Source: a phage | DNA: 39,736 nt | Direction: 5' to 3' (one strand) | Sequence record: PZ379179.1 | Part shown: positions 2,814 through 38,984 of the stretch, piece by piece | Layout of the letters: every line of letters begins with the position of its first letter | Position numbering within the stretch: position 1 is the stretch's first letter | Notes under the pieces: model-generated | Database searches by the model: none | Seen by the model: only the letters and a program-made list of their open reading frames with translations | What the model was told of the DNA's origin: nothing | Program-made: the position numbers and the translations under genes

Positions 2814-2836
2814 ACTTAACTATCACTATAGGACTC
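2814..2836 (+). promoter_or_regulatory. Phage RNAP promoter upstream of the RNAP gene
   Basis: TTAACTATCACTATAGGA matches the genome-wide promoter consensus; predicted +1 G at 2831. Followed by direct repeats AAGTGAAAGAC (x2) before the RNAP start. Confidence 0.6.
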
Positions 2837-2905
2837 AAGGTCTAAGACTCCAAGTGAAAGACCAAAGAGACTTTAAGTGAAAGACTAATAACAAGGACTT
2901 TAAGT

Positions 2906-5587
2906 ATGAGCGTCATCTCTATTGACAAGCACGACTTCTCTGATGTATCGAACGCCATTGAGCCGTTTAACCTACTGGCTGACCACTACGGGCAAGACCT
3001 TGCAGTCAAACAGCTTCAGCTTGAGCACGAGGCATACACTGAAGGCGAGCGACGTTTCATCAAGAACCTTGAGAGACAGACTGAGCGAGGGGAACTGGCA
3101 GACAATCAGGTCGCCAAGCCTTTGATGCAGACTCTGGTCCCTAAGATTGCGCAAGCCGTCAAGGAGTGGCATGAAGGTCCAGACGGGAAGCTGTCAACCT
3201 CTCGTCCGAGCGTAGCGTTCACCATGTTGAGCACTGAAGAGAAGGCCGTAAAGGTCCGCTCTTTGCGCATCTCCTGCGAGTCTGCTGCGGTTATCATACT
3301 GAAGGTCATACTCTCCAAGCTGGTCAAGCCTGAAGGGATACCGATTACACCGATGGCCTCAGCGATAGGTCGCACACTTGAGGACGAAATCCGCTTCGGT
3401 CGCATCCGTGACAAGGAGAAAGAGCACTTCAAGAAGGCGATAGCTGATAACCTGAATAAGCGGGCCGGGGCGTCCTACAAGAAAGCCTACATGCAAGCGG
3501 TCGAGGCATCCATGCTGGAGCAAGGCCAACTGGAAGATGCGTGGGGGACTTGGAGTCCGACCGAGGCTGTCCACGTTGGAATCAAGATGCTGGAGATTGT
3601 CATCCAGTCCACACAACTGGTCGAGCTTAAGCGTTACGGTGCTGGCAATGCAGCGGCTGACGTTGAGATGGTCCACCTGTCAGACTTCTGGGTCAAGAAG
3701 ATGGCACAACGAGGATTCAGCCTTGCGGGTATAGCTCCAGTCTACCAGCCTTGCGTCGTTCCACCTAAGCCGTGGACTGGTGTCGTAGGCGGTGGGTACT
3801 GGGCCAAAGGACGCAGACCATTACCACTGATTCGCTTAGGGTCTAAGTCTGCGGTAGCACGCTACGAAGACGTGTATATGCCTGAAGTCTATGACGCTGT
3901 GAACATCATTCAGAATACACCTTGGAAAGTGAACAAGAAGGTTCTGGAAGTGGTGAACATGGTCGAGAAGCTGAACAACACGCCTATTGATGACATCCCT
4001 CAGATGGAACCGCTGAAGCCTGAGGACTATGCGGGTGAGACTGAAGAAGAACTCAAGGCATGGAAGAAGGCTGCTGCTGGTATCTATCGCCGCGAGAAGG
4101 CCAGACAGTCACGAAGATTGTCACTGAGCTTTATCGTCAACCAAGCGAACAAGTTCTCTCAGTTCAAGGCCATCTGGTTCCCGTATAACATGGACTGGCG
4201 CGGTCGCGTCTACGCTGTGCCGATGTTCAACCCTCAGGGTAACGACATGCAAAAGGGTCTTCTGACTCTGGCAGTCGGTAAGCCTATTGGTGCTGATGGT
4301 TTCAAATGGCTGAAGGTCCACGGTGCAAACTGCGCGGGTGTCGATAAAGTCACCTTCGAGGAGCGTATCAAGTGGGTGGAAGATAACCACGAAAACATCA
4401 TGGCTGCTGCCAAGGCACCGATGGATAGCATTGAGTGGTGGGGCAAGTTAGACTCTCCGTTCTGCTTCCTAGCGTTCTGCTTCGAGTATGCTGGCGTAAT
4501 GCACCACGGCTTGTCTTACTCCTGCTCGCTGCCGATAGCGTTCGATGGGTCCTGCTCTGGGATTCAGCACTTCAGCGCTATGCTTCGCGACCACATCGGT
4601 GGACATGCAGTAAACCTGACGCCATCCGGTAAGGTACAAGACATCTACCGAATTGTGTCTGACCGCATTGAGGAGCAGCTTAAAGTCCTGCTGATTAACG
4701 GTACTGACAACGAGATGGTCACTCACGAGGATAAGAAAACTGGTGAGATTACCGAACGTATCAAGCTGGGGACACGAGAGCTGGCCCGTCAGTGGCTGAC
4801 ATACGGTATGTCACGCAAGGTCACTAAGCGTTCAGTCATGACTCTGGCATACGGGTCGAAAGAGTACGGCTTCGCAGACCAAGTTTACGAGGACATCGTG
4901 ATGCCAGCGATTGACTCAGGGTATGGCGCTATGTTCACCGAGCCAAGCCAAGCGTCTCGATTCATGGCTAAGATGATTTGGGAAGCTGTGAGTGTGACCG
5001 TAGTTGCTGCGGTTGACGCGATGAAGTGGCTTCAAGGTGCTGCCAAGCTGCTGGCTGCTGAAGTGAAGGACAAGAAGACTGGCGAAATCCTGAAGCCATG
5101 CCTTCCGGTACACTGGGTAACACCTGATGGTTTCCCTGTCTGGCAGGAATACCGCAAGAAGGATACCACTCGTCTGAACCTGATGTTCTTAGGGTCATTC
5201 AACCTTCAGCCTACAGTCAACAAAGGAACGAAGAAAGAGCTTGACAAGCACAAGCAGGAGTCAGGCATTAGCCCTAACTTCGTCCACTCACAAGATGGTA
5301 GCCACCTGCGGAAGACTGTAGTCCACACTCACCGCAAGTATGGCGTGATGTCATTCGCAGTGATTCACGATAGCTTCGGGACCATCCCTGCTGACGCTGA
5401 GTATCTGTTCCGTGGTGTCCGTGAGACGATGGTCGAGACATACCGCGATAATGATGTGCTGCTTGACTTCTACGAGCAGTTCGAATACCAGCTTCATGAA
5501 AGTCAGCGCGACAAGTTGCCTGAGCTTCCGAAGAAAGGTAAACTGAATATCGAAGACATCTTGTCTTCAGACTTTGCATTCGCTTAA
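2906..5587 (+). CDS. Single-subunit DNA-directed RNA polymerase (T7 gene 1 homolog)
   Basis: 893 aa; collinear with recalled T7 RNAP, including AFDGSCSGIQHFSAMLRD, VIHDSFGTIPAD and the C-terminal DFAFA. AAGGA RBS 8 nt upstream. Confidence 0.97.
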   Translation: MSVISIDKHDFSDVSNAIEPFNLLADHYGQDLAVKQLQLEHEAYTEGERRFIKNLERQTERGELADNQVAKPLMQTLVPKIAQAVKEWHEGPDGKLSTSRPSVAFTMLSTEEKAVKVRSLRISCESAAVIILKVILSKLVKPEGIPITPMASAIGRTLEDEIRFGRIRDKEKEHFKKAIADNLNKRAGASYKKAYMQAVEASMLEQGQLEDAWGTWSPTEAVHVGIKMLEIVIQSTQLVELKRYGAGNAAADVEMVHLSDFWVKKMAQRGFSLAGIAPVYQPCVVPPKPWTGVVGGGYWAKGRRPLPLIRLGSKSAVARYEDVYMPEVYDAVNIIQNTPWKVNKKVLEVVNMVEKLNNTPIDDIPQMEPLKPEDYAGETEEELKAWKKAAAGIYRREKARQSRRLSLSFIVNQANKFSQFKAIWFPYNMDWRGRVYAVPMFNPQGNDMQKGLLTLAVGKPIGADGFKWLKVHGANCAGVDKVTFEERIKWVEDNHENIMAAAKAPMDSIEWWGKLDSPFCFLAFCFEYAGVMHHGLSYSCSLPIAFDGSCSGIQHFSAMLRDHIGGHAVNLTPSGKVQDIYRIVSDRIEEQLKVLLINGTDNEMVTHEDKKTGEITERIKLGTRELARQWLTYGMSRKVTKRSVMTLAYGSKEYGFADQVYEDIVMPAIDSGYGAMFTEPSQASRFMAKMIWEAVSVTVVAAVDAMKWLQGAAKLLAAEVKDKKTGEILKPCLPVHWVTPDGFPVWQEYRKKDTTRLNLMFLGSFNLQPTVNKGTKKELDKHKQESGISPNFVHSQDGSHLRKTVVHTHRKYGVMSFAVIHDSFGTIPADAEYLFRGVRETMVETYRDNDVLLDFYEQFEYQLHESQRDKLPELPKKGKLNIEDILSSDFAFA

Positions 5588-5602
5588 CAGGAGGAGAAGT
5601 AT

Positions 5603-5843: not shown

Positions 5844-6059
5844 ATGAAATTTGCACACAAGCATACTGGCGTTAATGGTGGGACTCAAATCGTGACCGTA
5901 ACAGAACACAACGGCAAGGGTCTGGTGAAGACCACGGTCATCCCTACCGAGATGTCCAAGCAGCTTAACATCCCGTTCAAGACTCTTGTATATCTGGTCG
6001 AGTCCAGCCACGAGAAGTACCTGAAGGACGCAGTGTCCAAGCTGGAGCAGGCCAAATGA
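5844..6059 (+). CDS. Hypothetical protein (71 aa)
   Basis: ATG with AAGGAGA RBS; phage-typical codon usage. Confidence 0.55.
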   Translation: MKFAHKHTGVNGGTQIVTVTEHNGKGLVKTTVIPTEMSKQLNIPFKTLVYLVESSHEKYLKDAVSKLEQAK

Positions 6060-6124: not shown

Positions 6125-6147
6125 AGAGGTTAACCCTAAACTATCAC
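6125..6147 (+). promoter_or_regulatory. Phage RNAP promoter (phi1.1-like)
   Basis: CCTAAACTATCACTATAGGA; predicted +1 G at 6142. Confidence 0.7.
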
Positions 6148-6200
6148 TATAGGATTAGACTCAAGGTCATGACTCAAAGTCGTGGCCTTCATGATTAACC
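6144..6200 (+). ncRNA. Candidate RNase III processing hairpin (R1.1-like)
   Basis: GATTAGACTCAAGGTCATGACTCAAAGTCGTGGCCTTCATGATTAACC; related copies at 13375-13417 and 36131-36171. Resembles the T7 R1.1 site as I recall it (ACTCAAGGTCATTCGCAAGAGTGGCCTTTATGATTGACC). Confidence 0.45.
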
Positions 6201-6678: not shown

Positions 6679-7706
6679 TGACAACTATCAAAACTAACCC
6701 TCACCGCGCTGTAGATTACTCTGAGTCTGGAATTAAGAAGGCACTGGAAGCAGCCGGGTCTCTGGAAGCTGAAGTGAAGTACGATGGTGTGCGCCTGAAC
6801 CTCCTGGTCCTGCGTGAAGGTGAGACCTACTGGCTTAGCCGCGAGTCGAAACCTCTACCAGCCTTGGAGTGGATGAACTCTGAGTTAGGTAATGCGTGGA
6901 CCCAAGCTGACTGGCGATGGTTCCTGCGTCAATCCGGCTACGAAGGTGTGGGCATGATGATTGATGGCGAGGTCATGGTCAAAGGTGTAGACTTCAACAC
7001 CTCCTCAGGTCTCATCCGAACGAAGTGGCTCAAGCCTAACAACGAGGAGTTCGCTGAATACTATTCGCCGGCGACTGGTGGAAAGAAGCTCCCGTTCTGG
7101 GGATCCCGGTCACGACTTCAGGTTGTGGTCTACGGTGTCATTGACATGACAACCATTGCTGACCCGAAAGCCGAAGGTCCTATCCATAGCGTAACCCGCC
7201 TGAAGGCCGAAGCTATCGTCCCTCTTCTCCAGAAATACTTCCCGGAAATCGACTGGGTTCTGTCTGAGAGTCATACAGTGTTCAACCTTGAGTCTCTTCG
7301 TGATTTGTACGAGGAGAAGCGAGCAGATGGACATGAAGGTCTGGTAGTCAAGGACCCACTGGGCAAATACAAGCGTGGTAAGAAGTCTGGTATGTGGAAG
7401 ATGAAGCCGAGTGAAGAGGCAGATGGTCACGTTGTTCGCCCGGTGTGGGGAACAGAAGGCCTAGCCAACGAAGGCATGGTCATCGGCTTTGACGTTATGC
7501 TCGAGAACGGGATGGAGGTCTCCGCAACTAACATTAGTCGCGCCCTTATGTCCGAGTTCACGGAGAACGTTAAGTCAGACCCTGACTACTACAAAGGGTG
7601 GGCTTGCCAGATTACCTACATGGAGGAGACACCAGATGGCTCATTGCGACACCCCTCGTTCTACCAGTGGCGTGGAACTGAGGATAATCCTACAGTCAAG
7701 ATTTAA
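6678..7706 (+). CDS. ATP-dependent DNA ligase (T7 gene 1.3 homolog)
   Basis: Adenylation motif KYDGVR; MTTIKTNP...SYWLSRESK...HEGLVVKDP...KRGKKSGMWKMKP...WACQITYMEETPDGSLRHPSF collinear with T7 ligase. Track ORF begins at 6663; the ATG at 6678 overlaps the gene 1.2 stop. Confidence 0.93.
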   Translation: MTTIKTNPHRAVDYSESGIKKALEAAGSLEAEVKYDGVRLNLLVLREGETYWLSRESKPLPALEWMNSELGNAWTQADWRWFLRQSGYEGVGMMIDGEVMVKGVDFNTSSGLIRTKWLKPNNEEFAEYYSPATGGKKLPFWGSRSRLQVVVYGVIDMTTIADPKAEGPIHSVTRLKAEAIVPLLQKYFPEIDWVLSESHTVFNLESLRDLYEEKRADGHEGLVVKDPLGKYKRGKKSGMWKMKPSEEADGHVVRPVWGTEGLANEGMVIGFDVMLENGMEVSATNISRALMSEFTENVKSDPDYYKGWACQITYMEETPDGSLRHPSFYQWRGTEDNPTVKI

Positions 7707-7707
7707 A

Positions 7708-8118
7708 GTGGACGAAAGGTCGGCCTCCGGGCTGGCACTCCACTCTGGACGAAAGGTAGGAAGTAAGAAGAAGTCCGGCTATTGGACGATAAACGTCAGG
7801 ACACCGTGGGGCCGAAAGCATCTACAGGTTCATAGGGTAATATGGGAGATGACACACGGTCCCATACCAGACGGCATGGAGATTGACCACATTGACCGGA
7901 ACCCTTCTAATAACAGGCTGTCCAACCTGCGACTGGTGACTCACTCCGAGAACAACCAGAACAAAGGACAGATGTCCACCAACACTACCGGAGAACGTCA
8001 CATCTCAAAGGTGAAAGGTCGAGAGCTTTACTGTATCAAGAAGGTGGTCAACGGAGAGCGCTTGGTCCTATATGCCAAGACCATAGCCGAGGCAGTAGCC
8101 TTAAGAGATTCATTATAA
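7708..8118 (+). CDS. HNH homing-type endonuclease (copy A)
   Basis: HNH core [46 protein letters not shown]. The track ORF starts inside the ligase gene; alignment with the paralog at 36668 puts the N-terminus at GTG 7708, directly after the ligase stop. No in-frame ATG is available. Confidence 0.7.
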   Translation: MDERSASGLALHSGRKVGSKKKSGYWTINVRTPWGRKHLQVHRVIWEMTHGPIPDGMEIDHIDRNPSNNRLSNLRLVTHSENNQNKGQMSTNTTGERHISKVKGRELYCIKKVVNGERLVLYAKTIAEAVALRDSL

Positions 8119-8123
8119 TGTCA

Positions 8124-8156
8124 ACCCAGTGGTCTTATGACTGCTGGGTTTCTTTG
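8124..8156 (+). terminator. Rho-independent terminator (TE-like early terminator)
   Basis: ACCCAGTGG-loop-CTGCTGGGT hairpin followed by TTTCTTTGCG, resembling the T7 TE tail TTTCTGCG; sits after the ligase/HNH unit. Confidence 0.6.
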
Positions 8157-8177
8157 CGTACGGGCCACCAGCTAGAC

Positions 8178-8200
8178 CCTAAGCTATCACTATAGGACAA
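8178..8200 (+). promoter_or_regulatory. Phage RNAP promoter
   Basis: CCTAAGCTATCACTATAGGACAA; predicted +1 G at 8195. Confidence 0.65.
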
Positions 8201-8901: not shown

Positions 8902-9056
8902 CTGAGGTTGAGAAGAAATACATCGTGGAGCTTGAGGGTCGCGTTCAGTCCTTCGAGGTTCCGTTGTACGCAAAGTCTCTTGAAGAGGCTACCCTGAAGT
9001 CCCAAGAGTATGAGGACGCTGGGTTTGTGGTCGGACGGATTCGCCCTGAGACCTAA
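8898..9056 (+). CDS. Gp2-like inhibitor of host RNA polymerase (52 aa)
   Basis: [14 protein letters not shown]...[10 protein letters not shown] matches recalled T7 Gp2 (SFEVPIYAETLDEA...AGFEVTRVRP). Below the track size cut-off. Confidence 0.8.
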
Positions 9057-9074
9057 ACTATCACTGTAGGACAG
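9052..9074 (+). promoter_or_regulatory. Phage RNAP promoter, variant (CACTGTAGG)
   Basis: CTAAACTATCACTGTAGGACAGA, with G at -2 relative to the consensus; upstream of the SSB gene. Confidence 0.55.
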
Positions 9075-9114: not shown

Positions 9115-9809
9115 ATGGCTAAAGAGCAACTGAAGACTTTCACCACTCCGGTAGCTGGTATCGTTGAGCCTTACGCATGGCTGAACAAAGCAGACACCAA
9201 GTTTAACGAGCGTGGTGAGCATAAGGTTAACCTGACGTTCGACCTGAGCGACCCGAAGGTCCGTAAGATGATTGATGTCTTACAGAAGATTCACGACGAT
9301 GCGTATGCAAAAGCACTCGCAGACCACGAGAAGAACCCCCTCAGGTTCAGCGTGGCAAGAAGCCTATTGAACCACGAGAAGGCGACATGCCGTGGATTGA
9401 GAATGGTGACGGTACTGTTACCCTTAAGTTTAAATGCTTTGCGTCTTACCTGAAAGACGGCAAGTCCGAGCCTATCGTATTACGGTTCTACGACACCGAT
9501 GCTAAACTCATCCGTGACGTCCCGAATATCTGCGCTGGGTCTAAGCTGAAGGTCAAGTTTAAAGTCCTGCCGTTCAAGTGGAACGCTGCGACTGGTGCAA
9601 GCGTTAAGCTCCAGCTTGAGTCCTGCCTTCTGGTAGAACTGAAGGAGTGGAAAGGCGATGGTGGCGATGGTGGCTGGGGTGATGATGAAGACCTTGGTAC
9701 TGGCTACAAAGCGTCAACCGTTGGTGACTTCGGTGGTGATGACTTTGGGTCTGACGATGGTTCCGAAGGTGGTGACGACTCCAGCTCTGATGGCGATTAC
9801 GACTTCTAA
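9115..9809 (+). CDS. ssDNA-binding protein (T7 gp2.5 homolog), frame interrupted at a C5 run
   Basis: Track ORFs 9115..9453 and 9387..9809 together align with T7 gp2.5 (N-terminal part in one frame; PPQVQRGKKP...MPWIENGDGTVTLKFKC...GSKLKVKFKVLPFKWNAATGASVKLQLE and the acidic C-terminus ending DGDYDF in the other). The frames meet at CCCCC 9336-9340. Confidence 0.85.
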
Positions 9810-11228: not shown

Positions 11229-11426
11229 ATGACCACTATTACAAAAGAGCGACTACTGACAATCAAGCAGTGGCGCGAAACATACGGACATGGTAGCAAC
11301 GTTGTACTGCCAGCAGAAGAAGCGGAAGAACTGGAACGAATTGCACTTGCGTCACTGGAAGCTGGCATGAAGGCACGTCAAGCTGACACCAAAGCTGACC
11401 AGTTGGCTCAGTTCTTCAAAGCCTAA
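11229..11426 (+). CDS. Hypothetical accessory protein (65 aa)
   Basis: ATG with AAGGA RBS 8 nt upstream; the stop codon is part of the following promoter. No recognisable domain. Confidence 0.55.
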   Translation: MTTITKERLLTIKQWRETYGHGSNVVLPAEEAEELERIALASLEAGMKARQADTKADQLAQFFKA

Positions 11427-11444
11427 ACTATCACCTTAGGGATT
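11422..11444 (+). promoter_or_regulatory. Phage RNAP promoter, variant (CACCTTAGGG)
   Basis: CCTAAACTATCACCTTAGGGATT; upstream of the primase-helicase gene. Confidence 0.5.
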
Positions 11445-11491: not shown

Positions 11492-13195
<1,704 letters not shown>

Positions 13196-13435: not shown

Positions 13436-15607
13436 ATGTTTGACCTTAAGAGTATCTGGGGTTCTGACATCGAGACCAACGGTCTCCTTGATACAGTCTC
13501 CCAGTTTCACTGTGGGGTCCTGATTAACGCCGAGTCGAATGAGACCCTTAAGTATGGGGTAGCTCCGATGGTCGGTATCGTCGGTGGCTTCAAAGAGTAT
13601 GTGCAGAAGGTGGAAGAGATTGCCGCATCACCTGATGGTATGCTGGTATTCCACAACGGTATCAACTATGACGTCCCGGCTATTGACAAGCTGAAGCGTC
13701 TGTACTTCGGGAAACGCTTTAACTTCCCGAAACACAAGATGATTGATACCTTGGTGCTGGGTCGCTTGATGTATCCCAACATTAAGTTCTCAGACATGGG
13801 CGCGGTGAAAGCTGGTCGTCTGCCTCCTAAGATGATGGGACGCCAGTCTCTTGAGGCTTGGGGCTATCGTCTCGGTGAGATGAAAGGTGAGTACAAACAC
13901 GATTACGTTGCCAAATGCAAGGCTGAAGGTATTGAATATAAGGCTGGTGACGAATGGTTGTTCCCATCTCAGGAGATGCTGGACTATAACGTTCAAGACG
14001 TTGTGGTCACACTGGCGTTGTTCAAGAAGTTCCTGACTGACAAGTATTACTTCCAGTCTGAACAGTTCGCTTTCGACCAGATTTATGCGTTGCGTCTGGA
14101 ACATGATGCTGCGTGGACCTGTGCGAAGATGGAACGTAACGGCTATCCGATGAACACCGAGATGGTCGAAGGCTTATATCGTGAACTAACCGTCAAACGT
14201 GCAGAGCTACTGGACAAGCTGCGCTCTACTTTCGGTAGCTGGTATGCACCAAAGGGAGGCAAGGAGTTCTTCAGGCATCCACGGACAGGTAAGGATCTTC
14301 CGAAGTATCCGAGAGTCGTGTATCCCAAGGTCGGTGGCATCTTTAAGAAGCCTAAGAACAAAGCTCAACGCTTAGGTCTTGAACCTTGTGAACGCGATAC
14401 GCGAGACACGATGGAGGGAGCACCATTCACGCCAATCACTTACGTTGAGTTTAATCCGGGAAGCGGAGACCACTTAGCGAAAGTCCTGATGGAGCGTGGC
14501 TGGGAGCCTGTGGACTTTACTGACACCGGGAAACCTGTAGTCGATGACGAGACGTTGGAACACGTTAAGTTACCAGACGCAGAGGCTCAGGCTTGCGTAG
14601 AGCTGGTCCGTGAGTATCTGGTAGTCCAGAAGCGCATCGGTCAGGCGGCTGAAGGTAAGAACGCATGGTTGAAACTTGTAGGTCCAGACGGACGTATGCA
14701 CGGCTCAATAAACCCATGCGGGGCAGTAACCGGACGTGCGACCCATAGTTCACCAAACATGGCTCAGGTCCCGGCTAACGGTGCTCCATATGGTGAGACT
14801 TGCCGTGGTGCTTTCGGTGCAGCGTGGAACAAGAAGGACGGTAAGCCAGACCCTTGGATTCAAGTTGGTGTGGATGCCTCAGGTCTTGAGCTTCGTTGTC
14901 TTGGGAACAGAGCGGCTCCGTTTGATGGTGGTGCATATGCGAAGACTGTGGTAGAAGGTGACATCCACTGGGCCAACGCAGTAAACGCTGGGTTAGCACC
15001 TAACGTCCAACGCGATAAGTCTAACCACGACCATGAGGCTTTCCGTAACAACGCTAAGACGTTCATCTACGCGTTCCTGTATGGTGCAGGGGCCGCTAAG
15101 ATTGGACTGATAGTAGGCGGTGGTAAGAAGGAAGGTTCAGCTCTGATGAAGAAATTCATTGAGGGTACACCAGCCATCAAGGACCTCAGGGAAGCTGTGA
15201 GTAATACGTTAATCTCAGACTCTAAGTGGGTGGACGGAGAGAACATCGTTAAGTGGAAACGCCGTTGGCTGCGTGGACTTGATGGTCGCCGCATACACAT
15301 CCGGTCGCCACACTCAGCACTTAACGCCCTACTTCAGGGTGATGGTGCGGTTGTCTGTAAGCACTGGATGGTACTGACTGAGAAGAAACTTGAAGAGGCT
15401 GGTTACGGTAACGGATGGGACGGCGACTTTGCGCTAATGGCTTGGATTCACGATGAATTGCAGATAGCGTGCCGTACTCAGGAGATAGCAGAAGATGTCG
15501 TCCGTATTGCTCAAGAGGCGATGCGCGAGGTCGGACGCTTCTATAACTTCAAGTGTGAACTTGATACGGAGGGTAAGATTGGACCAACGTGGAAAGAGTG
15601 TCATTGA
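13436..15607 (+). CDS. DNA polymerase (T7 gene 5 homolog, family A)
   Basis: 723 aa; exonuclease and polymerase motifs (DIETNGL, DASGLELRCL, IHDELQ); GCGGAGGAT RBS. Confidence 0.96.
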   Translation: MFDLKSIWGSDIETNGLLDTVSQFHCGVLINAESNETLKYGVAPMVGIVGGFKEYVQKVEEIAASPDGMLVFHNGINYDVPAIDKLKRLYFGKRFNFPKHKMIDTLVLGRLMYPNIKFSDMGAVKAGRLPPKMMGRQSLEAWGYRLGEMKGEYKHDYVAKCKAEGIEYKAGDEWLFPSQEMLDYNVQDVVVTLALFKKFLTDKYYFQSEQFAFDQIYALRLEHDAAWTCAKMERNGYPMNTEMVEGLYRELTVKRAELLDKLRSTFGSWYAPKGGKEFFRHPRTGKDLPKYPRVVYPKVGGIFKKPKNKAQRLGLEPCERDTRDTMEGAPFTPITYVEFNPGSGDHLAKVLMERGWEPVDFTDTGKPVVDDETLEHVKLPDAEAQACVELVREYLVVQKRIGQAAEGKNAWLKLVGPDGRMHGSINPCGAVTGRATHSSPNMAQVPANGAPYGETCRGAFGAAWNKKDGKPDPWIQVGVDASGLELRCLGNRAAPFDGGAYAKTVVEGDIHWANAVNAGLAPNVQRDKSNHDHEAFRNNAKTFIYAFLYGAGAAKIGLIVGGGKKEGSALMKKFIEGTPAIKDLREAVSNTLISDSKWVDGENIVKWKRRWLRGLDGRRIHIRSPHSALNALLQGDGAVVCKHWMVLTEKKLEEAGYGNGWDGDFALMAWIHDELQIACRTQEIAEDVVRIAQEAMREVGRFYNFKCELDTEGKIGPTWKECH

Positions 15608-15638
15608 CCCTCGAACCCAGACCCTACGCTTCCACACC

Positions 15639-15920
15639 ATGCCTACCGGATGTATCGTCTGCGTGTCCCACAAGAGGAACCAAGATGGGTACTTCCGGTA
15701 CTCCATGGGAAGCTACAGGAAGGGCAACAAGTTCGCCTTCATGTTCCACCGATGGGTGTGGGAGCAGAAGCGCGGACCTATACCAAATGGCTACGAAATA
15801 GACCATTTGTGCTTGAACCGTGGGTGCTGCAACATAGAGCATCTACAGTGTATTCCAAAACGCGAACACGTCATTAAGACGAACCGTGAGCGCAAACTTG
15901 TTAAGAAGGAGTGTCACTAA
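15639..15920 (+). CDS. HNH endonuclease (T7 gene 5.3 position)
   Basis: 93 aa from the ATG at 15639 (the track ORF starts inside the polymerase gene); HNH with Cys ligands, HRWVWEQKRGPIPNGYEIDHLCLNRGCCNIEHLQ. Confidence 0.65.
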   Translation: MPTGCIVCVSHKRNQDGYFRYSMGSYRKGNKFAFMFHRWVWEQKRGPIPNGYEIDHLCLNRGCCNIEHLQCIPKREHVIKTNRERKLVKKECH

Positions 15921-16410: not shown

Positions 16411-17273
16411 GCGAAAAGAAAATAGCTCTTGTGTTAGATGGTGACTATCTGGTCTTCTCTTCTATGGCTGCTGCCGAGGACGAGACAGACTGGGGCGATG
16501 ACATCTGGACCCTTATCTGCGACCATGCAAAGGCTCGTCGTATCCTTGAGAACACCATCGCTGAAATCGTTAAGAAGCGCAAGGCGTGGAAAGACGCTAA
16601 GATTGTGATGTGCTTCACTGACGATTACAACTGGCGTAAGGACGTCCTACCTACCTATAAGGCCAACCGTAAAGGTTCTCGCAAGCCTGTAGGTTACAAG
16701 AAGTTCGTAGCCGAAGTGATGGCTGACCCACGGTTCAACAGCTTCCTGCGTCCTGCGCTTGAAGGCGATGATTGTATGGGTGTCATCGGGACCAGACCTC
16801 AGATTGTAGGCTGTGACCATGCTGTTCTGGTGTCCTGTGATAAGGACTTCAAGACCATCCCTAACTGTGAGTTCTTCTGGTTAACCACTGGTGAAATCCT
16901 GAGTCATACGACTGCTGAGGCAGACTACTGGCACATGGAGCAAACCATCAAGGGTGACACCACAGATGGCTACGGTGGCATTCCGGGGATGGGTGAGGAT
17001 ACCACACGCGCGTTCCTTGACGAGCCGTACTACTTCGTACAGGAGAGCCGTGAGCTTAAGACTGGTAAGAACAAAGGCCAGATTAAGACTGAGTGGAAGA
17101 AGTATCCAAAGCGTGACGACATGACGCTGTGGGACTGCATGGTGACTCTGGCTGCTAAAGCTGGGATGACCGAGGAGGAACTTCTGGTCCAAGCTCAGGT
17201 CGCTCGTATTTGCCGAGCCTCCGACTACGACCCTAAGTCCAAGGAGGTCATCCTATGGACACCATCCATGTAA
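16401..17273 (+). CDS. 5'-3' exonuclease (T7 gene 6 homolog)
   Basis: LVLDGDYLVF...CDHAKARRILE...YKANRK...KPVGY...SCDKDFKTIPNC...KGDTTDGYGGIPG...LWDCM...AKAGMTEEE collinear with T7 gp6. The track ORF opens at 16353 inside gp5.7; start is the ATG at 16401 or GTG at 16407 after GGAGG. Confidence 0.92.
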   Translation: MPVSEKKIALVLDGDYLVFSSMAAAEDETDWGDDIWTLICDHAKARRILENTIAEIVKKRKAWKDAKIVMCFTDDYNWRKDVLPTYKANRKGSRKPVGYKKFVAEVMADPRFNSFLRPALEGDDCMGVIGTRPQIVGCDHAVLVSCDKDFKTIPNCEFFWLTTGEILSHTTAEADYWHMEQTIKGDTTDGYGGIPGMGEDTTRAFLDEPYYFVQESRELKTGKNKGQIKTEWKKYPKRDDMTLWDCMVTLAAKAGMTEEELLVQAQVARICRASDYDPKSKEVILWTPSM

Positions 17274-17399: not shown

Positions 17400-17422
17400 A
17401 CTAAACTATCACTATAGGGACT
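17400..17422 (+). promoter_or_regulatory. Phage RNAP promoter (phi6.5-like)
   Basis: ACTAAACTATCACTATAGGGACT; predicted +1 G at 17417. Confidence 0.75.
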
Positions 17423-17483
17423 TTAGGACCTAAGATATGACTATAAGATAGACTTTAGTCTTAACTTAAAGAGGAGATTCAAG

Positions 17484-22660: not shown

Positions 22661-22664
22661 TTGA

Positions 22665-22703: not shown

Positions 22704-22717
22704 CTTAAGGAGGGACT

Positions 22718-22807: not shown

Positions 22808-22818
22808 GGAGTAAACCT

Positions 22819-26003: not shown

Positions 26004-26026
26004 CCTTAACTATCACTATAGGGACT
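26004..26026 (+). promoter_or_regulatory. Phage RNAP promoter (phi13-like)
   Basis: CTTAACTATCACTATAGGGACT; predicted +1 G at 26021. Confidence 0.75.
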
Positions 26027-32300: not shown

Positions 32301-33284
32301 AACGGTACGACCAACTACCTGTTAGATGCTGGACGTCAAGGCTTCCTGTCTGACATCGTGGAGCACAGCCTGACTGGTAGTAAGCGTAAGTTCGATGACC
32401 GCTGGCTGAAGACCGCTGGTATCTCTGACGAGCAGTGGAAGGGCATTAAGTCCCTAATCCGTGAGTCAGTGACTCGTGGTCCAGACGGGAAGTACACCAT
32501 CAAGGATAAGAAGGCGTTCAGTCAGGACCCAAGGGCTATGGACCTGTGGCGTATGGGTGACACCATCGCTGACGAAACGTTACTCCGGCCCCACAAGCTG
32601 TCAAACATGGACGCCAAGGCTTATGGTCCTCTCGCTAAGACTGTCCTTCAGTTTAAGAACTTCGTCATCAAGTCTATCAATGGGAGAACCATGCGAACCT
32701 TCTATAACGCCACGAAGAACAACAGAGCGATTGACGCTGCACTGTCGACCGTGATGTCTATGGGTCTGGCTGGTATCTACTACATGGCTCAGGCGCATGT
32801 CAAGGCTTATGCTATGCAGGATGGTCGAGACCGTGACTACCTTAAGCAAGCTCTGGACCCAACGATGATTGGCTATGCGGTCCTGTCCCGTAGTTCACAT
32901 CTTGGTGGCCCACTTGGGGTAGCTAACATTCTGGGGGGCATCGCTGGGTATGAGGACACTAAGATGCTCCGTTCGTCTATCCTACCTCGTTCGCCTACAG
33001 AGAAGCCTGAGCGTGCCATCGCGTATGGTGCAGCTACAAGTGACCCTGTGATGAATGTTGTTGGTAACTTCTTGGAGCAGGTTCCAGCTTTCGGATATGC
33101 TGCTAACGTTGGCGCTTCGGCTTACAACTTGGCTGGCTACCTCAAGGCTGATACTCGTGTCAACGAGCGTGACTACATGACCGGGATGTATAATACGTTC
33201 CGTGAACTGGTTCCGAACGACCCAATTACCCAGAAGCTGCTGCTTGGAACGTTTGAGGAGCAAGGCATCCACATCAAGGACTAA
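29397..33284 (+). CDS. Internal virion protein D (T7 gp16 homolog) with divergent N-terminal domain
   Basis: 1295 aa; from about residue 200 collinear with T7 gp16 (TWFGFGSATEAE, RWN.H.W..EELD.IR, GVDPLTYVP, MRLEARETARN, SPTGMQSGASGK, GTYVPHVY, NNSFLEARNLFDSD). The first ~130 aa (MATRGIRNNNPGNIR...) do not resemble the T7 lytic-transglycosylase N-terminus as I recall it. Confidence 0.93.
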   Translation: MATRGIRNNNPGNIRVSKDQWEGMTGDDGAFVTFDSPESGVRALGKNLLSYGRQGYDSIEKIINRWAPPNENDTKAYIDSVVAATGIPATQSLDLSNPDTLSSLAQAISFHETGSRYNPEVYQKGVERALNGISPKTPPVSANVFDALTEGLKAKPKVALGENLPTAAGLNIEGQAPEAPNESFGEMFYKSTGETMQEREDRSTWFGFGSATEAEVKNSMVGVAIRAGQTEDSLDVIGDVFNPTRWNNHKWSREELDQIRNAGVLPQYYGVITGGSPQNLTELINLALENQKLDQEKAKAGTGAQLAAGVIGAGVDPLTYVPIAGQVGKGAKLVNKMFAVAAQSGALAGVSEMARTSVAGGDDHVAEAILGGALFGAGMTTIADGLGRALGRNTNEFAGPATRLEARETARNVDGQDLSRLPIQEGEQTFSHQGVKFADVQNEPGSVRLEDGSILIGENPLNPKTRQVFDEVIEPERAAAGVNLGGLTEIGLKLLRSENPEIRGVAADLVRSPTGMQSGASGKIGTTASDVFERLRAVDHRFYNDIDDAVTEALKDPYFQTAFWRDSGAFRQDIYQRVSMAIEDGSGNLKAELTPGELKVYDLLKNQFDAKREMMENPAMFGRPDAKSIFPGSRFKGTYVPHVYSNQMKELYIKELGRPEALQEAIKKSWLTSYASRPEVKKRVDEALLEADPTLTPEGLAAAVDKYANDKAYGISHTEQFERSSIMEENINGLVGLENNSFLEARNLFDSDMSIVLPNGQTFSVNNLREWDMDKIVPAYNRRVNGDIAIMAGTGKTTKDMKDLVETLMNKAGDDGKLKGEVSTLRGTLKILTGRARRDGADDAAFATVMRTMTDLSFFAKNAYMGVQNLTEIGGMLARGNVRAMLHGVPIFRDLAFRNKKVGASEIKDLHNVIFGKELDDSIRPSKQDVIDRLRSYSDLGRGTATALGTAKYYTGELAVRSPFTKVLNGTTNYLLDAGRQGFLSDIVEHSLTGSKRKFDDRWLKTAGISDEQWKGIKSLIRESVTRGPDGKYTIKDKKAFSQDPRAMDLWRMGDTIADETLLRPHKLSNMDAKAYGPLAKTVLQFKNFVIKSINGRTMRTFYNATKNNRAIDAALSTVMSMGLAGIYYMAQAHVKAYAMQDGRDRDYLKQALDPTMIGYAVLSRSSHLGGPLGVANILGGIAGYEDTKMLRSSILPRSPTEKPERAIAYGAATSDPVMNVVGNFLEQVPAFGYAANVGASAYNLAGYLKADTRVNERDYMTGMYNTFRELVPNDPITQKLLLGTFEEQGIHIKD

Positions 33285-33302
33285 ACTATCACTATAGGAA
33301 AC
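33280..33302 (+). promoter_or_regulatory. Phage RNAP promoter (phi17-like)
   Basis: ACTAAACTATCACTATAGGAAAC; the gp16 stop TAA is embedded in the promoter. Confidence 0.7.
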
Positions 33303-33348: not shown

Positions 33349-35529
33349 ATGTCCACGATTACACAATTCCCTTCAGGAAACACTCAGTACAGGATTGAGT
33401 TCGACTACCTAGCCAGAACGTTTGTTGTTGTTACGCTGGTGAATAGCTCTAACCCTACCCTGAACCGTGTACTGGAAGTTGGTCGAGATTACCGATTCCT
33501 TAATCCAACGATGATTGAGATGTTGGCTGACCAATCAGGTTTCGACATCGTTCGTATTCACCGTCAGACTGGAACTGACTTAGTGGTAGACTTCAGGAAT
33601 GGCTCAGTGTTGACGGCTAGTGACCTGACAAATTCAGAGCTTCAGGCTATCCATATTGCAGAAGAAGGTCGAGACCAAACGGTTGACTTAGCGAAGGAAT
33701 ATGCCGATGCTGCTGGTAGCTCTGCTGGCAACGCTAAGGATAGCGAGGACGAAGCACGCCGAATCGCTGCGAGTATCAAGGCAGCTGGTAAAATTGGCTA
33801 TATTACCCGTCGCTCCTTCGAGAAAGGCTTCAACGTTACAACATGGAACGAGGTCCTGCTATGGGAAGAGGATGGTGATTATTACCGCTGGGATGGTACA
33901 CTTCCAAAGAACGTTCCCGCTGGTTCAACTCCTGAATCATCTGGTGGTATTGGGCTGAGTGCGTGGGTTAGTGTTGGGGATGCGTCACTTAGAGCAAACC
34001 TGTCTGATAGTGATGGCGCTAAATACATAGGCAGTGGAGAAAGGACATTACTTGAGCACAGCAATGATGTTTTGCACTCAAAAGACTTTCCAACACTGCA
34101 GGCAGCTATAGATGCATCTTTGCAAAAAAATGATCTACTGGTGTCTCCTGGCAATTATACTGAAAAAGTTACTATTGGAAACGCGCAGTTAAAAGGTGTT
34201 GGCGGGGCCGCGGTACTAAAAACTCCGGCAGACTTTACAAACACTGTTCAGGTTAATTTAGCTACACCTCATTGGCAATTCCGCCATAGTGGTGGTTTTG
34301 CTATAGATGGTTCCGGGACAACCGGAGCCGTAGGTATTAGTTTTGACCCGTCAGACCAATATTCCGGACGTCATAATTTTAGTGATGTATACATCCACAA
34401 CATCAACAAGGCCCTTCAGAAGCCTTCCGGGAACATCGGCAATACTTGGAGAAATATTGGGATATCTACGTGTGATTGGGGGTATTACGCGATTAGTGGC
34501 TCAGAGACGCATTGCGGGGCCGATACCCTCTACAATATCCACTTCGATGGCATCTCCACCTATGCAGTCTATCTAGACGGCACTGTCGATAATGGCGGGG
34601 TGGGCGCATGGTGGCTTAAAGACTCCATTATTGAGGCTTCCGGAGGTGGCGGGATATACTTAAAAAGTAAATCGGGCGACTGTCCTACATCTCCATGCGG
34701 GGTATCCAATATATGGATGGAAGCTATCGCAACATCACCGGCTGTTCAGGTAGACGGCGTGGCGCAAAAACCGCGAGTTCTCAAGTTGGTAGACACAGCG
34801 ATATTCTTTGCTGAGTATTCTTATCTCAACAACATCGAGCTATCCAACTCCAACTTAGTAACTTATGGTTGCCGTTTTGACAACGCTGATGGCAATCAGG
34901 ATATTGTCGTGGATGCACAAAGTACCATTGTAGCCCATGACGTGTATTTAAACGGCAGTTCTGGAAAGGACGTTATTGTGGAGTCCGTAGCATCGCAATC
35001 TGCAACGATAGCTGCCACAAACTTATCTCTGAGGGGCAACTTAACAAGAGGGAGAGTATTTAATACGCCGACAGGGAATAAATTAATGGCTATCACATTT
35101 GACTCAGGTAGCCATTATTTTTCTGGCAGCGGCACCGTTAACGGTTCGACTGTATCTGACGGACTTCACTCCGCTACATGTACCGAATTTTCATTCCCCG
35201 GAGCCGGTTTATATGAAATGGGAGCGACAAGAACAGCCATTACATCCGGTAGATGGTACGTGTGGGGAGTTAACTCACGCCTACAATCTGGCTCGGCGGA
35301 TATTAGTATAACGTCAGGTATTACCATGGGTAGTGTTTACACAAAGCCGGGGGAGTGGATTAGCACTTTCGGTGTAGGAAAGGCATCTACCACTGGCACT
35401 GTAGCGCTATACGTTTCCACAGGAGGAGGTTCGGGAGCTACGGTCAGATTCAGTGACTTTTTCATCGCTGAGTTTACGACGCAAGCTCAGGCTTTAGCTT
35501 TCGCCAATTCAAGGATGTCGTTATCATAA
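33349..35529 (+). CDS. Tail fibre / tailspike: T7 gp17-like N-terminal anchor fused to a beta-helix (depolymerase-like) C-terminal domain
   Basis: 726 aa; N-terminus (EFDYLARTFVVVTLVN, DYRF, LVVDFRNGSVLTASDL, AIHIAEEGRDQTV) matches the T7 gp17 tail-attachment domain. From about nt 34000 codon usage becomes AT-rich and the protein shows Gly/Asn/Ser-rich repeats typical of right-handed beta-helix tailspikes. Confidence 0.9.
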   Translation: MSTITQFPSGNTQYRIEFDYLARTFVVVTLVNSSNPTLNRVLEVGRDYRFLNPTMIEMLADQSGFDIVRIHRQTGTDLVVDFRNGSVLTASDLTNSELQAIHIAEEGRDQTVDLAKEYADAAGSSAGNAKDSEDEARRIAASIKAAGKIGYITRRSFEKGFNVTTWNEVLLWEEDGDYYRWDGTLPKNVPAGSTPESSGGIGLSAWVSVGDASLRANLSDSDGAKYIGSGERTLLEHSNDVLHSKDFPTLQAAIDASLQKNDLLVSPGNYTEKVTIGNAQLKGVGGAAVLKTPADFTNTVQVNLATPHWQFRHSGGFAIDGSGTTGAVGISFDPSDQYSGRHNFSDVYIHNINKALQKPSGNIGNTWRNIGISTCDWGYYAISGSETHCGADTLYNIHFDGISTYAVYLDGTVDNGGVGAWWLKDSIIEASGGGGIYLKSKSGDCPTSPCGVSNIWMEAIATSPAVQVDGVAQKPRVLKLVDTAIFFAEYSYLNNIELSNSNLVTYGCRFDNADGNQDIVVDAQSTIVAHDVYLNGSSGKDVIVESVASQSATIAATNLSLRGNLTRGRVFNTPTGNKLMAITFDSGSHYFSGSGTVNGSTVSDGLHSATCTEFSFPGAGLYEMGATRTAITSGRWYVWGVNSRLQSGSADISITSGITMGSVYTKPGEWISTFGVGKASTTGTVALYVSTGGGSGATVRFSDFFIAEFTTQAQALAFANSRMSLS

Positions 35530-36128: not shown

Positions 36129-36130
36129 GT

Positions 36131-36224: not shown

Positions 36225-36671
36225 ATGCTCGAATTTTTAAAGAGAGCGGCTCCGTGGTTACTTTCAGCAGTGATATTTGCTGGTGGCTACCACACCGCTA
36301 ACAATAAGTGGGAGGCTAAGGTCAATGCAGAATACACCTCGAATCTTAAGGCATCGGAGGATACAAGACTTGCTGTCCAAGCTGAAGTCAACAAAGTGTC
36401 CAAACGGTTTCAGGACGAAATGTCCTCGCTGGAAGGCAGCACTGATAGGATTATTGCTGACCTTCAGTCTGACAATAAGCGGTTGCGCATCCGAGTCAAA
36501 CCTACGAGTGGAACCACGCAAAGTGACGGTCGATGCGTCATTGATGGTTACGCCGAACTTGACGAACGAGATGCTAAACGTCTTATCGCCATCGGAGTGA
36601 AAGGAGACAAATGGATTAAGGCGCTTCAGGACACTGTGAGAGCCTTGCAGCAAGATAAGGAGGCCCAATGA
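36225..36671 (+). CDS. i-spanin, Rz-like (T7 gp18.5 homolog)
   Basis: 148 aa; MLEFLKRAAPWLL...LEGSTDRIIADLQSDNKRLRIRVK...LDERDAKRLIA...GDKWIKALQDTVRALQ matches T7 gp18.5; N-terminal TM segment. Confidence 0.9.
   Translation: MLEFLKRAAPWLLSAVIFAGGYHTANNKWEAKVNAEYTSNLKASEDTRLAVQAEVNKVSKRFQDEMSSLEGSTDRIIADLQSDNKRLRIRVKPTSGTTQSDGRCVIDGYAELDERDAKRLIAIGVKGDKWIKALQDTVRALQQDKEAQ
36325..36600 (+). CDS. o-spanin, Rz1-like lipoprotein embedded in the +1 frame of the i-spanin gene
   Basis: Track ORF 36277..36600 in an alternative frame inside gp18.5; contains a lipobox-like LTISGC after a hydrophobic stretch LIGLLLTFS. Start uncertain (first ATG at 36325). Confidence 0.45.
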   Translation: MQNTPRILRHRRIQDLLSKLKSTKCPNGFRTKCPRWKAALIGLLLTFSLTISGCASESNLRVEPRKVTVDASLMVTPNLTNEMLNVLSPSE

Positions 36672-37108
36672 TGCTCAGTGATTCGTATGTCTATGATGAG
36701 TCCAGTAAGTCTGGCCTGAAGTCCCTGCGTTCTGGTAAGGACGTGGGGTGTGTGGGAAACCACGGGTATTATCAGGTAGGAACTCGACGTCATGGACTCC
36801 TACTGGCCCATAGAGTCGTCTGGGAACTAACCCACGGTCCTATACCAGAAGGTATGGAGATTGACCATATTGACCGCTGCCGGACTAACAACAGGCTGGA
36901 CAACCTCCGGCTAGTTACTTCAAGCGAGAACTCCTGCAACACCTCAGGACATTCTGACTCAAAGACTGGAGTTAAGAACATATCGTTCCATCAGAATGGC
37001 TACGCTATCGAGGTCATGCGTAAGGGAGTCCGTATGCGAACAACACGTCCTACTTTAGAGGAGGCTATCTCTGTCCGGGACCTAATGCTGGAGGGACTCT
37101 ATGTCTAA
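36668..37108 (+). CDS. HNH homing-type endonuclease (copy B, paralog of 7708..8118)
   Basis: 146 aa; [13 protein letters not shown]...[41 protein letters not shown], about 60% identical to copy A across the core. Overlaps the gp18.5 stop and the terminase start. Confidence 0.8.
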
Positions 37109-38867
37109 GAAAACACCTGCTGAAAGACAGGCTGAAATGACCCAAAGGATGAGGGACGACTTCGTGTTCTTCATCTTCGTTCTCTGGAAAGCTCTTAGCC
37201 TTCCGGTTCCAACCCGCTGCCAGATAGATATGTGTAAGAAGCTGGCTGCTGGGGATAATCGCCGCTTCATCCTTCAGGCTTTCCGTGGTATTGGTAAGTC
37301 GTTTCTGACCTGTGGTTTCGTGGTCTGGAAGCTATGGAACAACCCAGACTTGAAGTTCATGATTGTGTCGGCCTCAAAGGAACGAGCTGATGCTAACTCC
37401 ATCTTCATCAAGCGAATCATCGACCTCATGCCTCAGCTTCAGGAACTCAAACCTAAGCAGGGACAGCGAGATGCGGTTATCAGCTTCGACGTTGGTCCCG
37501 CCAAGCCAGACCACTCACCTTCGGTTAAGTCCGTTGGTATCACTGGTCAGTTGACTGGTAGTCGTGCTGACATCCTGATTGCTGATGACGTGGAGGTTCC
37601 GAACAACTCAGCGACTCAGGCTGCCCGGGACCGTCTGTCAGAGCTTGTGAAAGAGTTCGACGCTATCCTGAAGCCTGGAGGTACAATCATCTATCTGGGT
37701 ACTCCTCAGAACGAGATGACCCTATACCGTGAGCTGGAAGGTCGTGGGTACACCACTACTATCTGGCCCGCTCGTTATCCACGCGACAGGAAGGACTGGC
37801 AGTCTTACGGCGACCGTCTGGCTCCTATGCTTCAGGCAGAGCTGGAAGAGGACCCTGAGTCCTTCTACTGGCGTCCGACTGATGAAGTACGCTTCGATGA
37901 TACGGACCTGAAGGAACGTGAGCTGTCCTACGGTAAAGCTGGCTTCGCTCTACAGTTCATGCTTAACCCTAACCTGAGTGATGCCGAGAAGTACCCTCTG
38001 AAGCTCCGTGACCTTATCGTAGCAGACTTGGACCCAGCGTCTAGCCCAATGGTCTACCAATGGCTTCCTAACCCTCAGAACAAGCGTGAGGACGTTCCTA
38101 ACGTTGGACTCATGGGTGACTCGTACCACACGTATCAGACTGTAGGCTCTGCCTTCAGCGCGTACACTCAGAAGATTCTGGTCATTGACCCTAGTGGTCG
38201 TGGTAAGGATGAGACTGGCTACGCTGTTCTGTACCAGCTCAACGGCTACATCTTCGTGATGGAAGCTGGTGGTATGCGCGGTGGGTATGAGGACTCTACG
38301 CTGGAAGCACTGGCTAAGATTGGTCGTAAGTGGAAGGTCAACGAATACGTCATTGAGGGTAACTTCGGTGATGGTATGTACCTTGAGCTATTCAAGCCTG
38401 TAGCGGCCCGTATACATCCTGCTGCTGTAACTGAAGTGAAGAGTAAGGGTCAGAAAGAACTCCGCATCTGTGACGTTCTGGAGCCTATCATGGGGTCTCA
38501 CCGACTTATCGTCAACGCTGCTGCTATCGTCCAAGACTACCAGTCGGCCTCTGATAAGGATGGTGTTCGTAACCCTATCTACTCTCTCTTCTACCAGATG
38601 ACACGTATCTCTCGTGAACGTGGAGCCTTGGCACACGATGACAGACTTGATGCTCTGGCTATCGGTGTACAGTTCTTCGTTGAGTCTATGGCTAAGGATG
38701 CCAACAAAGGCGAACGTGAAGTCACTGAGGAGTGGCTGGAGGAACAGATGGAGAACCCACGGAAAGGCTTCGAGTCCATCCACACTGAGTTCTGGGACAA
38801 TGGGGTCCGGGTGACTCACGATACGGACGACGAGCTGGGACTAGGGTCCTACGTTACGTTCCACTAG
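37101..38867 (+). CDS. Terminase large subunit / DNA maturation protein B (T7 gene 19 homolog)
   Basis: 588 aa; Walker A-like [10 protein letters not shown], ATPase and nuclease regions; position and size match T7 gp19. GGAGGGA RBS. Confidence 0.95.
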
Positions 38868-38961
38868 CTGAATGAATAACTATAGGCGAAAACTGAGTTA
38901 ATAAGCAGTTAGTAACCTATAGTTACTACCAGTCTAACCTACTGTTTTACAAGGAGTTTGG

Positions 38962-38984
38962 ACTTAACTATCACTATAGGGAAG
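38962..38984 (+). promoter_or_regulatory. Phage RNAP promoter near the right end (phiOR-like)
   Basis: CTTAACTATCACTATAGGGAAGA; flanked by degenerate promoter-like palindromes (AACTATAGGCG, AACCTATAGTTACT, TATTACTATAGTGAAT). Confidence 0.7.

Follow-up and report, generated by a model that had tools for sequence, protein, structure and literature searches.

Sequence record PZ379179.1 is a phage DNA of 39,736 nucleotides, and this whole stretch, here called the window, is the complete linear genome of a member of the genus Kayfunavirus (K1F-like coliphages of the T7 group). All of its genes lie on the + strand, and every core gene of the T7 group is present in T7 order, among them gene 1 (2906-5587), which encodes a single-subunit RNA polymerase (RNAP) of 893 amino acids (aa). 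Eleven copies of a 23-bp repeat are distributed among these genes. A preliminary description had read these repeats as phage RNAP promoters of a specificity distinct from those of T7, T3, SP6 and K11. The analysis presented here indicates, with a probability of about 95%, that these eleven copies make up the complete set of promoters read by the RNAP of the phage itself and that they belong to the K1F specificity class. It also indicates that this promoter type is already known.

Detection and positions of the eleven sites

The whole window was searched on both strands for AACTATCACTATAGG with up to three mismatches, and 100 dinucleotide-preserving shuffles served as the control. Eleven matches were found, all on the + strand, of which eight were exact, two had one mismatch and one had two; they start at 2818, 6139, 8182, 9056, 11426, 17404, 20242, 21227, 26008, 33284 and 38966. 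Shuffled sequences contained 0.99 matches on average and 3 at most, and none of the 100 reached eleven. The complete 23-mers, which extend from -17 to +6, begin four bases before these 15-mers at 2814, 6135, 8178, 9052, 11422, 17400, 20238, 21223, 26004, 33280 and 38962. The number of copies and ten of the eleven coordinates in the preliminary description agree exactly with this list, while the copy placed there at 6125 is displaced by 10 bases and occupies 6135-6157. The position weight matrix (PWM) scan proposed in that description was carried out with a matrix made from the eleven sites on both strands of the window. It gave 30.7-36.7 bits for the sites and 14.5 bits for the next best position anywhere on either strand. 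This gap between 14.5 and at least 30.7 bits indicates that the promoter set is complete, and the scan found no further promoter, such as an equivalent of phiOL, in the window.

The conserved block from -17 to +3 reads (A/C)CT(A/T)AACTATCACTATAGG(G/A). Positions -16, -15, -13, -11 to -5, -2, -1, +1 and +2 are invariant in all sites, T replaces A at -14 in three of them, and +4 is A in seven of the eleven. The initiation core TCACTATAGG is found at -8 to +2 in nine sites, and -12 to -8 is ACTAT in ten, the phi1.6 site having GCTAT. Seven sites lie entirely between open reading frames (ORFs), and for these the statement that the repeats are always intergenic holds. The other four extend into the final codon of the preceding gene; here, as had been noticed before, a TAA stop codon forms -15 to -13 of the promoter. 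These stop codons belong to gene 2 (ending at 9056), to an ORF at 11229-11426, to gene 8 (ending at 20242) and to gene 16 (ending at 33284).

All sites are on the coding strand and precede the same gene blocks as the promoters of T7, so that the arrangement is collinear with the T7 promoter map: they are found upstream of genes 1, 1.1/1.2/1.3, 1.6, 2.5, 4, 6.5, 9, 10, 13 and 17 and, as phiOR, downstream of gene 19. They also coincide one-to-one with the phage promoters in the GenBank record of phage EcoDS1 (EU734172), in which exactly these eleven positions are annotated, partly under the names phi1.6, phi2.5, phi6.5, phi9, phi13, phi17 and phiOR. Core, strand, gene blocks and this coincidence together bear out the earlier reading of the repeats as phage RNAP promoters.

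The leftmost promoter (2814-2836, ACTTAACTATCACTATAGGACTC, +1 G at 2831) precedes the RNAP gene, and the same 23-mer is present in phage K1F (core at 2478) and in EcoDS1 (core at 2248, annotated as 2244-2266). The promoter before genes 1.1/1.2/1.3 (ligase) lies at 6135-6157 (CCTAAACTATCACTATAGGATTA, +1 G at 6152) and is orthologous to the EcoDS1 promoter annotated at 6034-6056. Three sites with altered cores follow. The phi1.6 site (8178-8200, CCTAAGCTATCACTATAGGACAA, +1 G at 8195) has G at -12 (AGCTAT), and the phi2.5 site (9052-9074, CCTAAACTATCACTGTAGGACAG, +1 G at 9069), which shares the TAA of gene 2, has G at -3; both variants recur in K1F, EcoDS1 and phage Ro45lw, the former also at the same place. 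The promoter of the primase-helicase gene 4 (11422-11444, CCTAAACTATCACCTTAGGGATT, +1 G at 11439) has C at -4 and T at -3, a core variant also present in K1F and EcoDS1. The variants quoted in the preliminary description for 9052 (CACTGTAGG) and 11422 (CACCTTAGG) are correct, and the G at -12 at 8178 adds a third.

The six late promoters are all perfect from -16 to +2, in contrast to the early and middle promoters, of which three out of five carry substitutions. The consensus sites phi6.5 (17400-17422, ACTAAACTATCACTATAGGGACT, +1 G at 17417), phi9 (20238-20260, +1 G at 20255, sharing the TAA of gene 8) and phi13 (26004-26026, +1 G at 26021) are orthologous to the EcoDS1 promoters of the same names at 16991-17013, 19813-19835 and 25367-25389, respectively. 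The phi10 site before the major capsid gene (21223-21245, ACTAAACTATCACTATAGGGAGA, +1 G at 21240) corresponds to the promoter annotated at 20819-20841 in EcoDS1. The phi17 site before the tail-spike gene (33280-33302, +1 G at 33297), which shares the TAA of gene 16, corresponds to phi17 of EcoDS1 at 33040-33062, and phiOR after gene 19 (38962-38984, ACTTAACTATCACTATAGGGAAG, +1 G at 38979) to phiOR at 38500-38522.

The EcoDS1 record also annotates an early terminator (TE) and a late terminator, and both are present on the + strand of the window. TE (8123-8160) consists of a hairpin with a 12-bp stem followed by the U-run TTTCTTTG; it is 91% identical to the stretch with TE of EcoDS1 (7668-7697) and has a predicted folding energy of -22.9 kcal/mol. 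The late terminator of the Tphi type between genes 10 and 11 (22664-22705) has a U-run and a predicted folding energy of -25.2 kcal/mol, and the surrounding 54 nucleotides (22655-22708) are 100% identical to the stretch containing the terminator annotated at 22122-22157 in EcoDS1. The promoter sites and the two terminators form the standard transcription map of the T7 group.

Degenerate promoter-like copies were observed about 30 nucleotides downstream of phi6.5 (17429-17449, CCTAAGATATGACTATAAGAT, 14.5 bits) and of phiOR (38996-39016, CTTATAGTATTACTATAGTGA, 9.1 bits). The copy after phi6.5 is kept in K1F, EcoDS1 and Ro45lw, and its leader has inverted GACTTTAG/CTAAAGTC motifs. In T7, R6.5 is a processing hairpin of the RNase III type, and by analogy the copy after phi6.5 may be such a hairpin.

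Specificity class and the cognate RNA polymerase

For comparison with other phages, annotated promoters of T7, T3 and K11 were taken from the phage records, and a consensus sequence was used for SP6. The annotated comparators were phi1.1A of T7 (CAATACGACTCACTATAGAGGGA), phi1.05 of T3 (CATTAACCCTCACTAACGGGAGA) and phi1.05 of K11 (AATTAGGGCACACTATAGGGAAC). Over the 19 positions from -17 to +2, the window consensus differs from T7 at 8 positions, from T3 at 5, from K11 at 7 and from the SP6 consensus at 7. The block from -12 to -8 is ACTAT in the window, in contrast to CGACT in T7, ACCCT in T3, GGGCA in K11 and GGTGA in SP6. None of these four blocks was found together with the core at any site in the window in the list of top PWM scores. 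Further upstream, (A/C)CT(A/T)A stands in place of the T7 sequence TAATA. The stated difference between ACTAT and the T7 block CGACT and the claim of a specificity distinct from T7, T3, K11 and SP6 are both supported by these data.

The general architecture is shared within the group. Promoters of T3, K11 and SP6 have the same organization and a CACTA(T/A)AG core, and the class II and class III promoters of T7 are likewise 23 bp long, carry TCACTATAGG at -8 to +2 and precede the same gene blocks (1.1, 1.6, 2.5, 4, 6.5, 9, 10, 13, 17 and OR). The number of promoters differs, with eleven in the window versus 17 in T7.

In contrast to these phages, K1F (NC_007456) and EcoDS1, which like Ro45lw are coliphages of the genus Kayfunavirus, have the same eleven sites as the window. 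Their 23-mers equal those of the window site by site, with identical cores, including the three variant ones, and with differences at no more than three flanking positions (-17 or +3 to +6), for example at -17 of the gene 4 promoter and at +3 to +6 of phiOR. Ro45lw has 12 copies, the twelfth at 12449, of which its record annotates six; its gene 1 promoter has A at -2, and its gene 4 promoter has the core CACCTAAGG, unlike the variant in the window. When IMG/VR and GTDB genomes were scanned for the 18-mer CTAAACTATCACTATAGG, the matches in IMG/VR were mostly in contigs of about 39-40 kb with several copies each. The position of the first promoter, 75 nucleotides upstream of the RNAP gene, is common to the window, K1F, EcoDS1 and Ro45lw; the compared stretches of T7, T3 and K11 have no annotated phage promoter immediately before this gene.

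Promoters of this class have been described in several studies. The RNAP of Ro45lw was purified, its minimal promoter was determined as ACTTAACTATCACTATAGGGA, and initiation at the +1 G was mapped by 5'-end sequencing (Takatsuki et al. 2025). This minimal promoter is identical to positions 38962-38982 of the window, which are -17 to +4 of phiOR. In an engineered system, the K1F loop was grafted into T7 RNAP and the T7 promoter was replaced by the K1F consensus at -12 to -7, which resulted in an active pair that is highly orthogonal to the T7, T3 and N4 promoters (Temme et al. 2012, PMC3458549). A T7 RNAP variant with 754S/756N/761V is listed with the cognate promoter ACTAT (Zhu et al. 2025, PMC11880802, Table 2). 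Finally, a genome note from 2026 reports the repeat CTWAACTATCACTATAGG in another Kayfunavirus and calls its copies promoters. The engineered T7(K1F) RNAP and its promoter P_K1F follow the same logic as the natural sites, in that a 754S/756N/761V loop reads ACTAT at -12 to -8 and is orthogonal to T7 (CGACT) and T3 (ACCCT). However, P_K1F keeps the T7 sequence TAATA at -17 to -13 and is read by an enzyme with a T7 body, whereas the natural sites have (A/C)CT(A/T)A and are served by an enzyme that shares only 64% identity with T7 RNAP.

A new and so far uncharacterized specificity class, as was implied in the preliminary description, has practically no probability against this background. It draws on the fact that ACTAT at -12 to -8 is unlike the sequences of T7, T3, K11 and SP6, but the promoters equal those of K1F, EcoDS1 and Ro45lw, are annotated in EU734172, are known as the 'K1F' orthogonal promoter, have been characterized in vitro with the Ro45lw enzyme and were reported again in the Kayfunavirus of 2026. 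The implied novelty is not upheld, as the promoter is identical to that of the characterized Ro45lw RNAP and to that of the orthogonal K1F system, and such an identity with a characterized promoter is what the preliminary description itself had named as a refutation. The promoters of the window are of the already known K1F/Kayfunavirus type, and nothing in the window is novel in this respect.

The assignment to the K1F class agrees with the polymerase itself. The gene 1 product was compared with the proteins of K1F, T7, T3, K11, SP6 and Ro45lw, to which it is 99% (K1F), 94% (Ro45lw), 64% (T7 and T3), 59% (K11) and 32% (SP6) identical, and it aligns end to end with the RNAPs of T7, T3, K11 and SP6. 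The columns of T7 residues D537, K631 and D812 are invariant in the alignment and correspond to D547, K641 and D822 of the window enzyme. The specificity-loop hairpin (residues 754-771, encoded at 5165-5218 on the + strand, equivalent to T7 744-761) has the sequence TTRLNLMFLGSFNLQPTV and is identical to that of K1F; in Ro45lw, it differs by one conservative exchange of M to L. Compared with the T7 loop (QTRLNLMFLGQFRLQPTI), it carries Q744T, Q754S, R756N and I761V in T7 numbering and keeps R746, N748 and Q758. These exchanges agree with the earlier suggestion of a different readout by the specificity loop, and the residues S, N and V at T7 positions 754, 756 and 761 are present as S764, N766 and V771. 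The N-terminal region, where the AT-rich recognition loop of T7 RNAP lies, is divergent from T7.

In the crystal structure of T7 RNAP with its promoter, the reported contacts are those of R746 with -7, of Q758 with -8, of R756 with the G in the C:G pair at -9 and of N748 with both -10 and -11. The window promoters retain the T at -8 and the C at -7 of T7 alongside R746 and Q758, and they have A:T at -9, in contrast to C:G in T7, where Arg756 is replaced by Asn. Judged from the T7 contacts, this pairing of Arg756 to Asn with A:T at -9 would be a sensible co-change.

Proposed transcription programme and promoter strength

Sequence, positions, orthology and loop identity come from the present analysis, and initiation at the +1 G and the orthogonality of ACTAT and the K1F loop come from the work of others; residue-base contacts, relative promoter strengths and timing are what we infer from them. 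By homology to T7, the host RNAP would transcribe the left end of the genome, gene 1 included, up to TE (approximately 8123-8160). The phage RNAP would bind each 23-bp promoter as duplex DNA in the region from -17 to -5, with the specificity-loop hairpin reading -12 to -7 in the major groove and the N-terminal loop reading -17 to -13. The K1F class, with ACTAT at -12 to -8, would be set by S, N and V at T7 positions 754, 756 and 761. TATA at -4 to -1 would be melted, and the RNA would begin at the G of GG(G/A). Rightward transcription would then serve the middle genes from the promoters before 1.1, 1.6, 2.5 and 4 and the late genes from phi6.5, phi9, phi10, phi13, phi17 and phiOR, with a partial stop at the Tphi-type terminator (22664-22705) after gene 10. 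The consensus promoter 75 nucleotides upstream of the RNAP gene would give positive feedback on synthesis of the polymerase.

It is very improbable that the repeats serve another purpose, be it as targets of homing endonucleases, as recombination or packaging signals, as RNase III sites or as host sigma-70 promoters. The genome does contain three ORFs for HNH endonucleases, and some phage promoters of T7 (phi1.1A/B and phiOR) double as signals for replication and packaging, a precedent which makes a second role possible for some of the copies. However, the core at -8 to +2 is the universal initiation sequence of the T7 group, the positions of the repeats follow the gene blocks and not the HNH genes, and the near-identical enzyme of Ro45lw initiates on this exact sequence in vitro. 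Host promoters were considered separately: scans for the sigma-70 consensus showed no enrichment, and no -35/-10 pair of this type coincides with the sites on the + strand. Beyond the general precedent of T7 promoters with an additional function in replication or packaging, nothing speaks for a role other than that of promoters.

The copies at 8178, 9052 and 11422, which were described earlier in part as possibly weaker, require separate consideration. All three are located in the early and middle gene region, and the arrangement resembles that of T7, with consensus copies before late genes and variant copies before middle genes. Class II promoters of T7 are weaker and deviate from the consensus but are active, and class III promoters are stronger. 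By analogy, the three variants are probably weaker than the exact copies, as T7 class II promoters are in comparison to class III. That only the eight exact copies work and that these three are decayed relics is unlikely. The substitutions do affect the binding region (-12) and the melting region (-4/-3), and changes at these positions usually lower activity in T7. On the other hand, the same core substitutions are kept in K1F and EcoDS1, and Ro45lw, with a DNA identity of only 87.5% in the RNAP gene, shares two of the three, which suggests tuned strength rather than decay. In addition, each variant is situated where a promoter is needed, before genes 1.6, 2.5 and 4, the sites at the first two of these are annotated as phi1.6 and phi2.5 in EcoDS1 and Ro45lw, and the class II promoters of T7 show that a promoter without the consensus can be active.

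Several points weigh against the interpretation of the eleven repeats as the promoter set of the K1F-type RNAP. Their promoter role in this genome is deduced from sequence and orthology, and the map of contacts between residues and bases is taken over from the T7 crystal structure. The bases at -10 and -11 are not those of T7, yet N748 is the same residue, so that a reading of one base by one residue would be incomplete. How strong the variants at 8178, 9052 and 11422 are relative to the other sites is likewise projected from T7.

Further genome features and related promoters in bacterial chromosomes

The nearest records to the window are the phages vB_EcoP-101136BS1 and LM33_P1, which match 94-96% of its first 25 kb at about 96% nucleotide identity. 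The exact direct terminal repeat of 161 bp (1-161 = 39576-39736) indicates that the window is complete and in its natural linear form; the annotated repeats are 178 bp long in EcoDS1 and 190 bp in Ro45lw. Gene 2.5 for the single-stranded DNA-binding protein (9115-9809) is broken up into the overlapping ORFs 9115-9453 and 9387-9809. The split is caused by a deletion of one nucleotide near 9338, where a run of five C remains: the window has AACCC-CCTC in contrast to AACCC(G/A)CCTC in EcoDS1, K1F and Ro45lw. This is either a sequencing error in a homopolymer or a frameshift in an essential gene. In the K1F RefSeq record, gene 2.5 (approximately 8624) is itself one base short near its 5' end (GGCTG-ACAAAG) compared with the window, EcoDS1 and Ro45lw, and the stretch upstream of the missing base also failed to align, which may account for the K1F protein being some 20 aa shorter in its annotation.

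The three homing-endonuclease ORFs are of the HNH_3 type and are located after the ligase gene (7489-8118), after the DNA polymerase gene (15495-15920) and between genes 18.5 and 19 (36668-37108). The DNA polymerase gene (13436-15607) is uninterrupted in the window, whereas in the K1F annotation an HNH ORF lies between its two joined parts. A 75-aa ORF with a DUF3850/ASCH domain (23385-23612) is inserted between the tail genes 11 and 12; at the corresponding position (22748-22975), EcoDS1 carries an equally long ORF without a name, and in K1F genes 11 and 12 abut. The tail-spike gene 17 (33349-35529) encodes a product of 726 aa, of which only the first approximately 224 aa match the 1064-aa endosialidase tail protein of K1F. 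The matching part consists of the T7-tail N-terminal domain and the Tail_spike_N domain, and the receptor-binding part is different, so that the phage appears unlikely to be specific for the K1 capsule.

In the genome scan for the 18-mer, 9 of 24 matches were in Enterobacteriaceae, and the others included Flavobacteriaceae. In the latter, CTAAACTATCACTATAGG occurs once each in about ten genomes (L105, L107, L117 and others among L109-L125). The flanks around the 18-mer were near-identical in the three Maribacter and Cellulophaga loci examined, which suggests a single conserved locus with a chance match to the promoter.

In Escherichia coli, Shigella, Citrobacter, Leclercia, Buttiauxella and Enterobacter, the exact K1F-type promoter was found in small integrase-bearing chromosomal islands. 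The island of E. coli 13E0767 (NZ_CP020107, locus L103, 12295-18709) is 6.4 kb long, lies at a tRNA-Gly gene and is bounded by 17-nucleotide direct (att) repeats; the other island loci are L071, L104, L114, L119, L120, L122, L126, L127, L128 and L129. A second T7-group promoter with a different specificity immediately precedes the K1F-type promoter at most enterobacterial loci; its sequence is TAATACACCTCACTATAGAGG in E. coli and Shigella, while Leclercia has TTATACCCTCACTATAGGGAA and Citrobacter portucalensis and Buttiauxella have AATAACCCCTCACTATAGGGG. At -12 to -8, the tandem partners have CACCT, ACCCT or CCCCT, and ATTAT in locus L129. A further promoter or promoter cluster follows about 310-580 nucleotides downstream in most loci with enough downstream sequence, and the leader between the two clusters had no match in Rfam.

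The ORFs of the 13E0767 island are that of a tyrosine integrase, a variable one and conserved ones of 61-68, 163 and 329 aa that belong to no recognizable family. Comparison of the island ORFs with Pfam, PHROGs, PADLOC, NCBIfam and PDB sequences revealed only the integrase and weak hints of Rha, DUF4145 or HEPN-like domains, and the 329-aa core protein has homologs in Enterobacterales only, none of which bears a name. Part of the promoter/leader region of the island is present in 135 of 5,426 complete E. coli genomes, and in 12 complete genomes the match covers at least 80% of the stretch with the tandem promoters. A short-word BLAST of island against phage for shared packaging or terminal-repeat sequences found the promoters only. 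Circular island-sized contigs were also considered; the two examined had no terminal overlap, and one of the island-sized contigs starts inside tRNA-Gly, which indicates an integrated state. Such islands were reportedly catalogued by Chen and Schneider in 2006, and their existence is a known observation. Literature searches found neither a functional test of these islands nor any work on satellites of T7-like phages.

For the phage itself, the value of the present findings lies in annotation: a full map of the phage RNAP promoters, both terminators and the cognate polymerase are now defined for the window, which aids engineering and annotation, and the ACTAT specificity class has been in practical use as the orthogonal K1F polymerase/promoter pair since 2012. 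The islands could matter more. It is a tentative idea, with somewhat less than even odds, that the RNAP of an infecting Kayfunavirus such as that of the window switches them on and that they function as satellites or as defence devices triggered by infection. If so, the promoter would be the interface of an interaction between phage and parasite or between phage and defence, which concerns the related loci and not the window, and the islands could provide a case, ready to be tested, of a mobile element tied to how virulent phages of the T7 group transcribe their genes.

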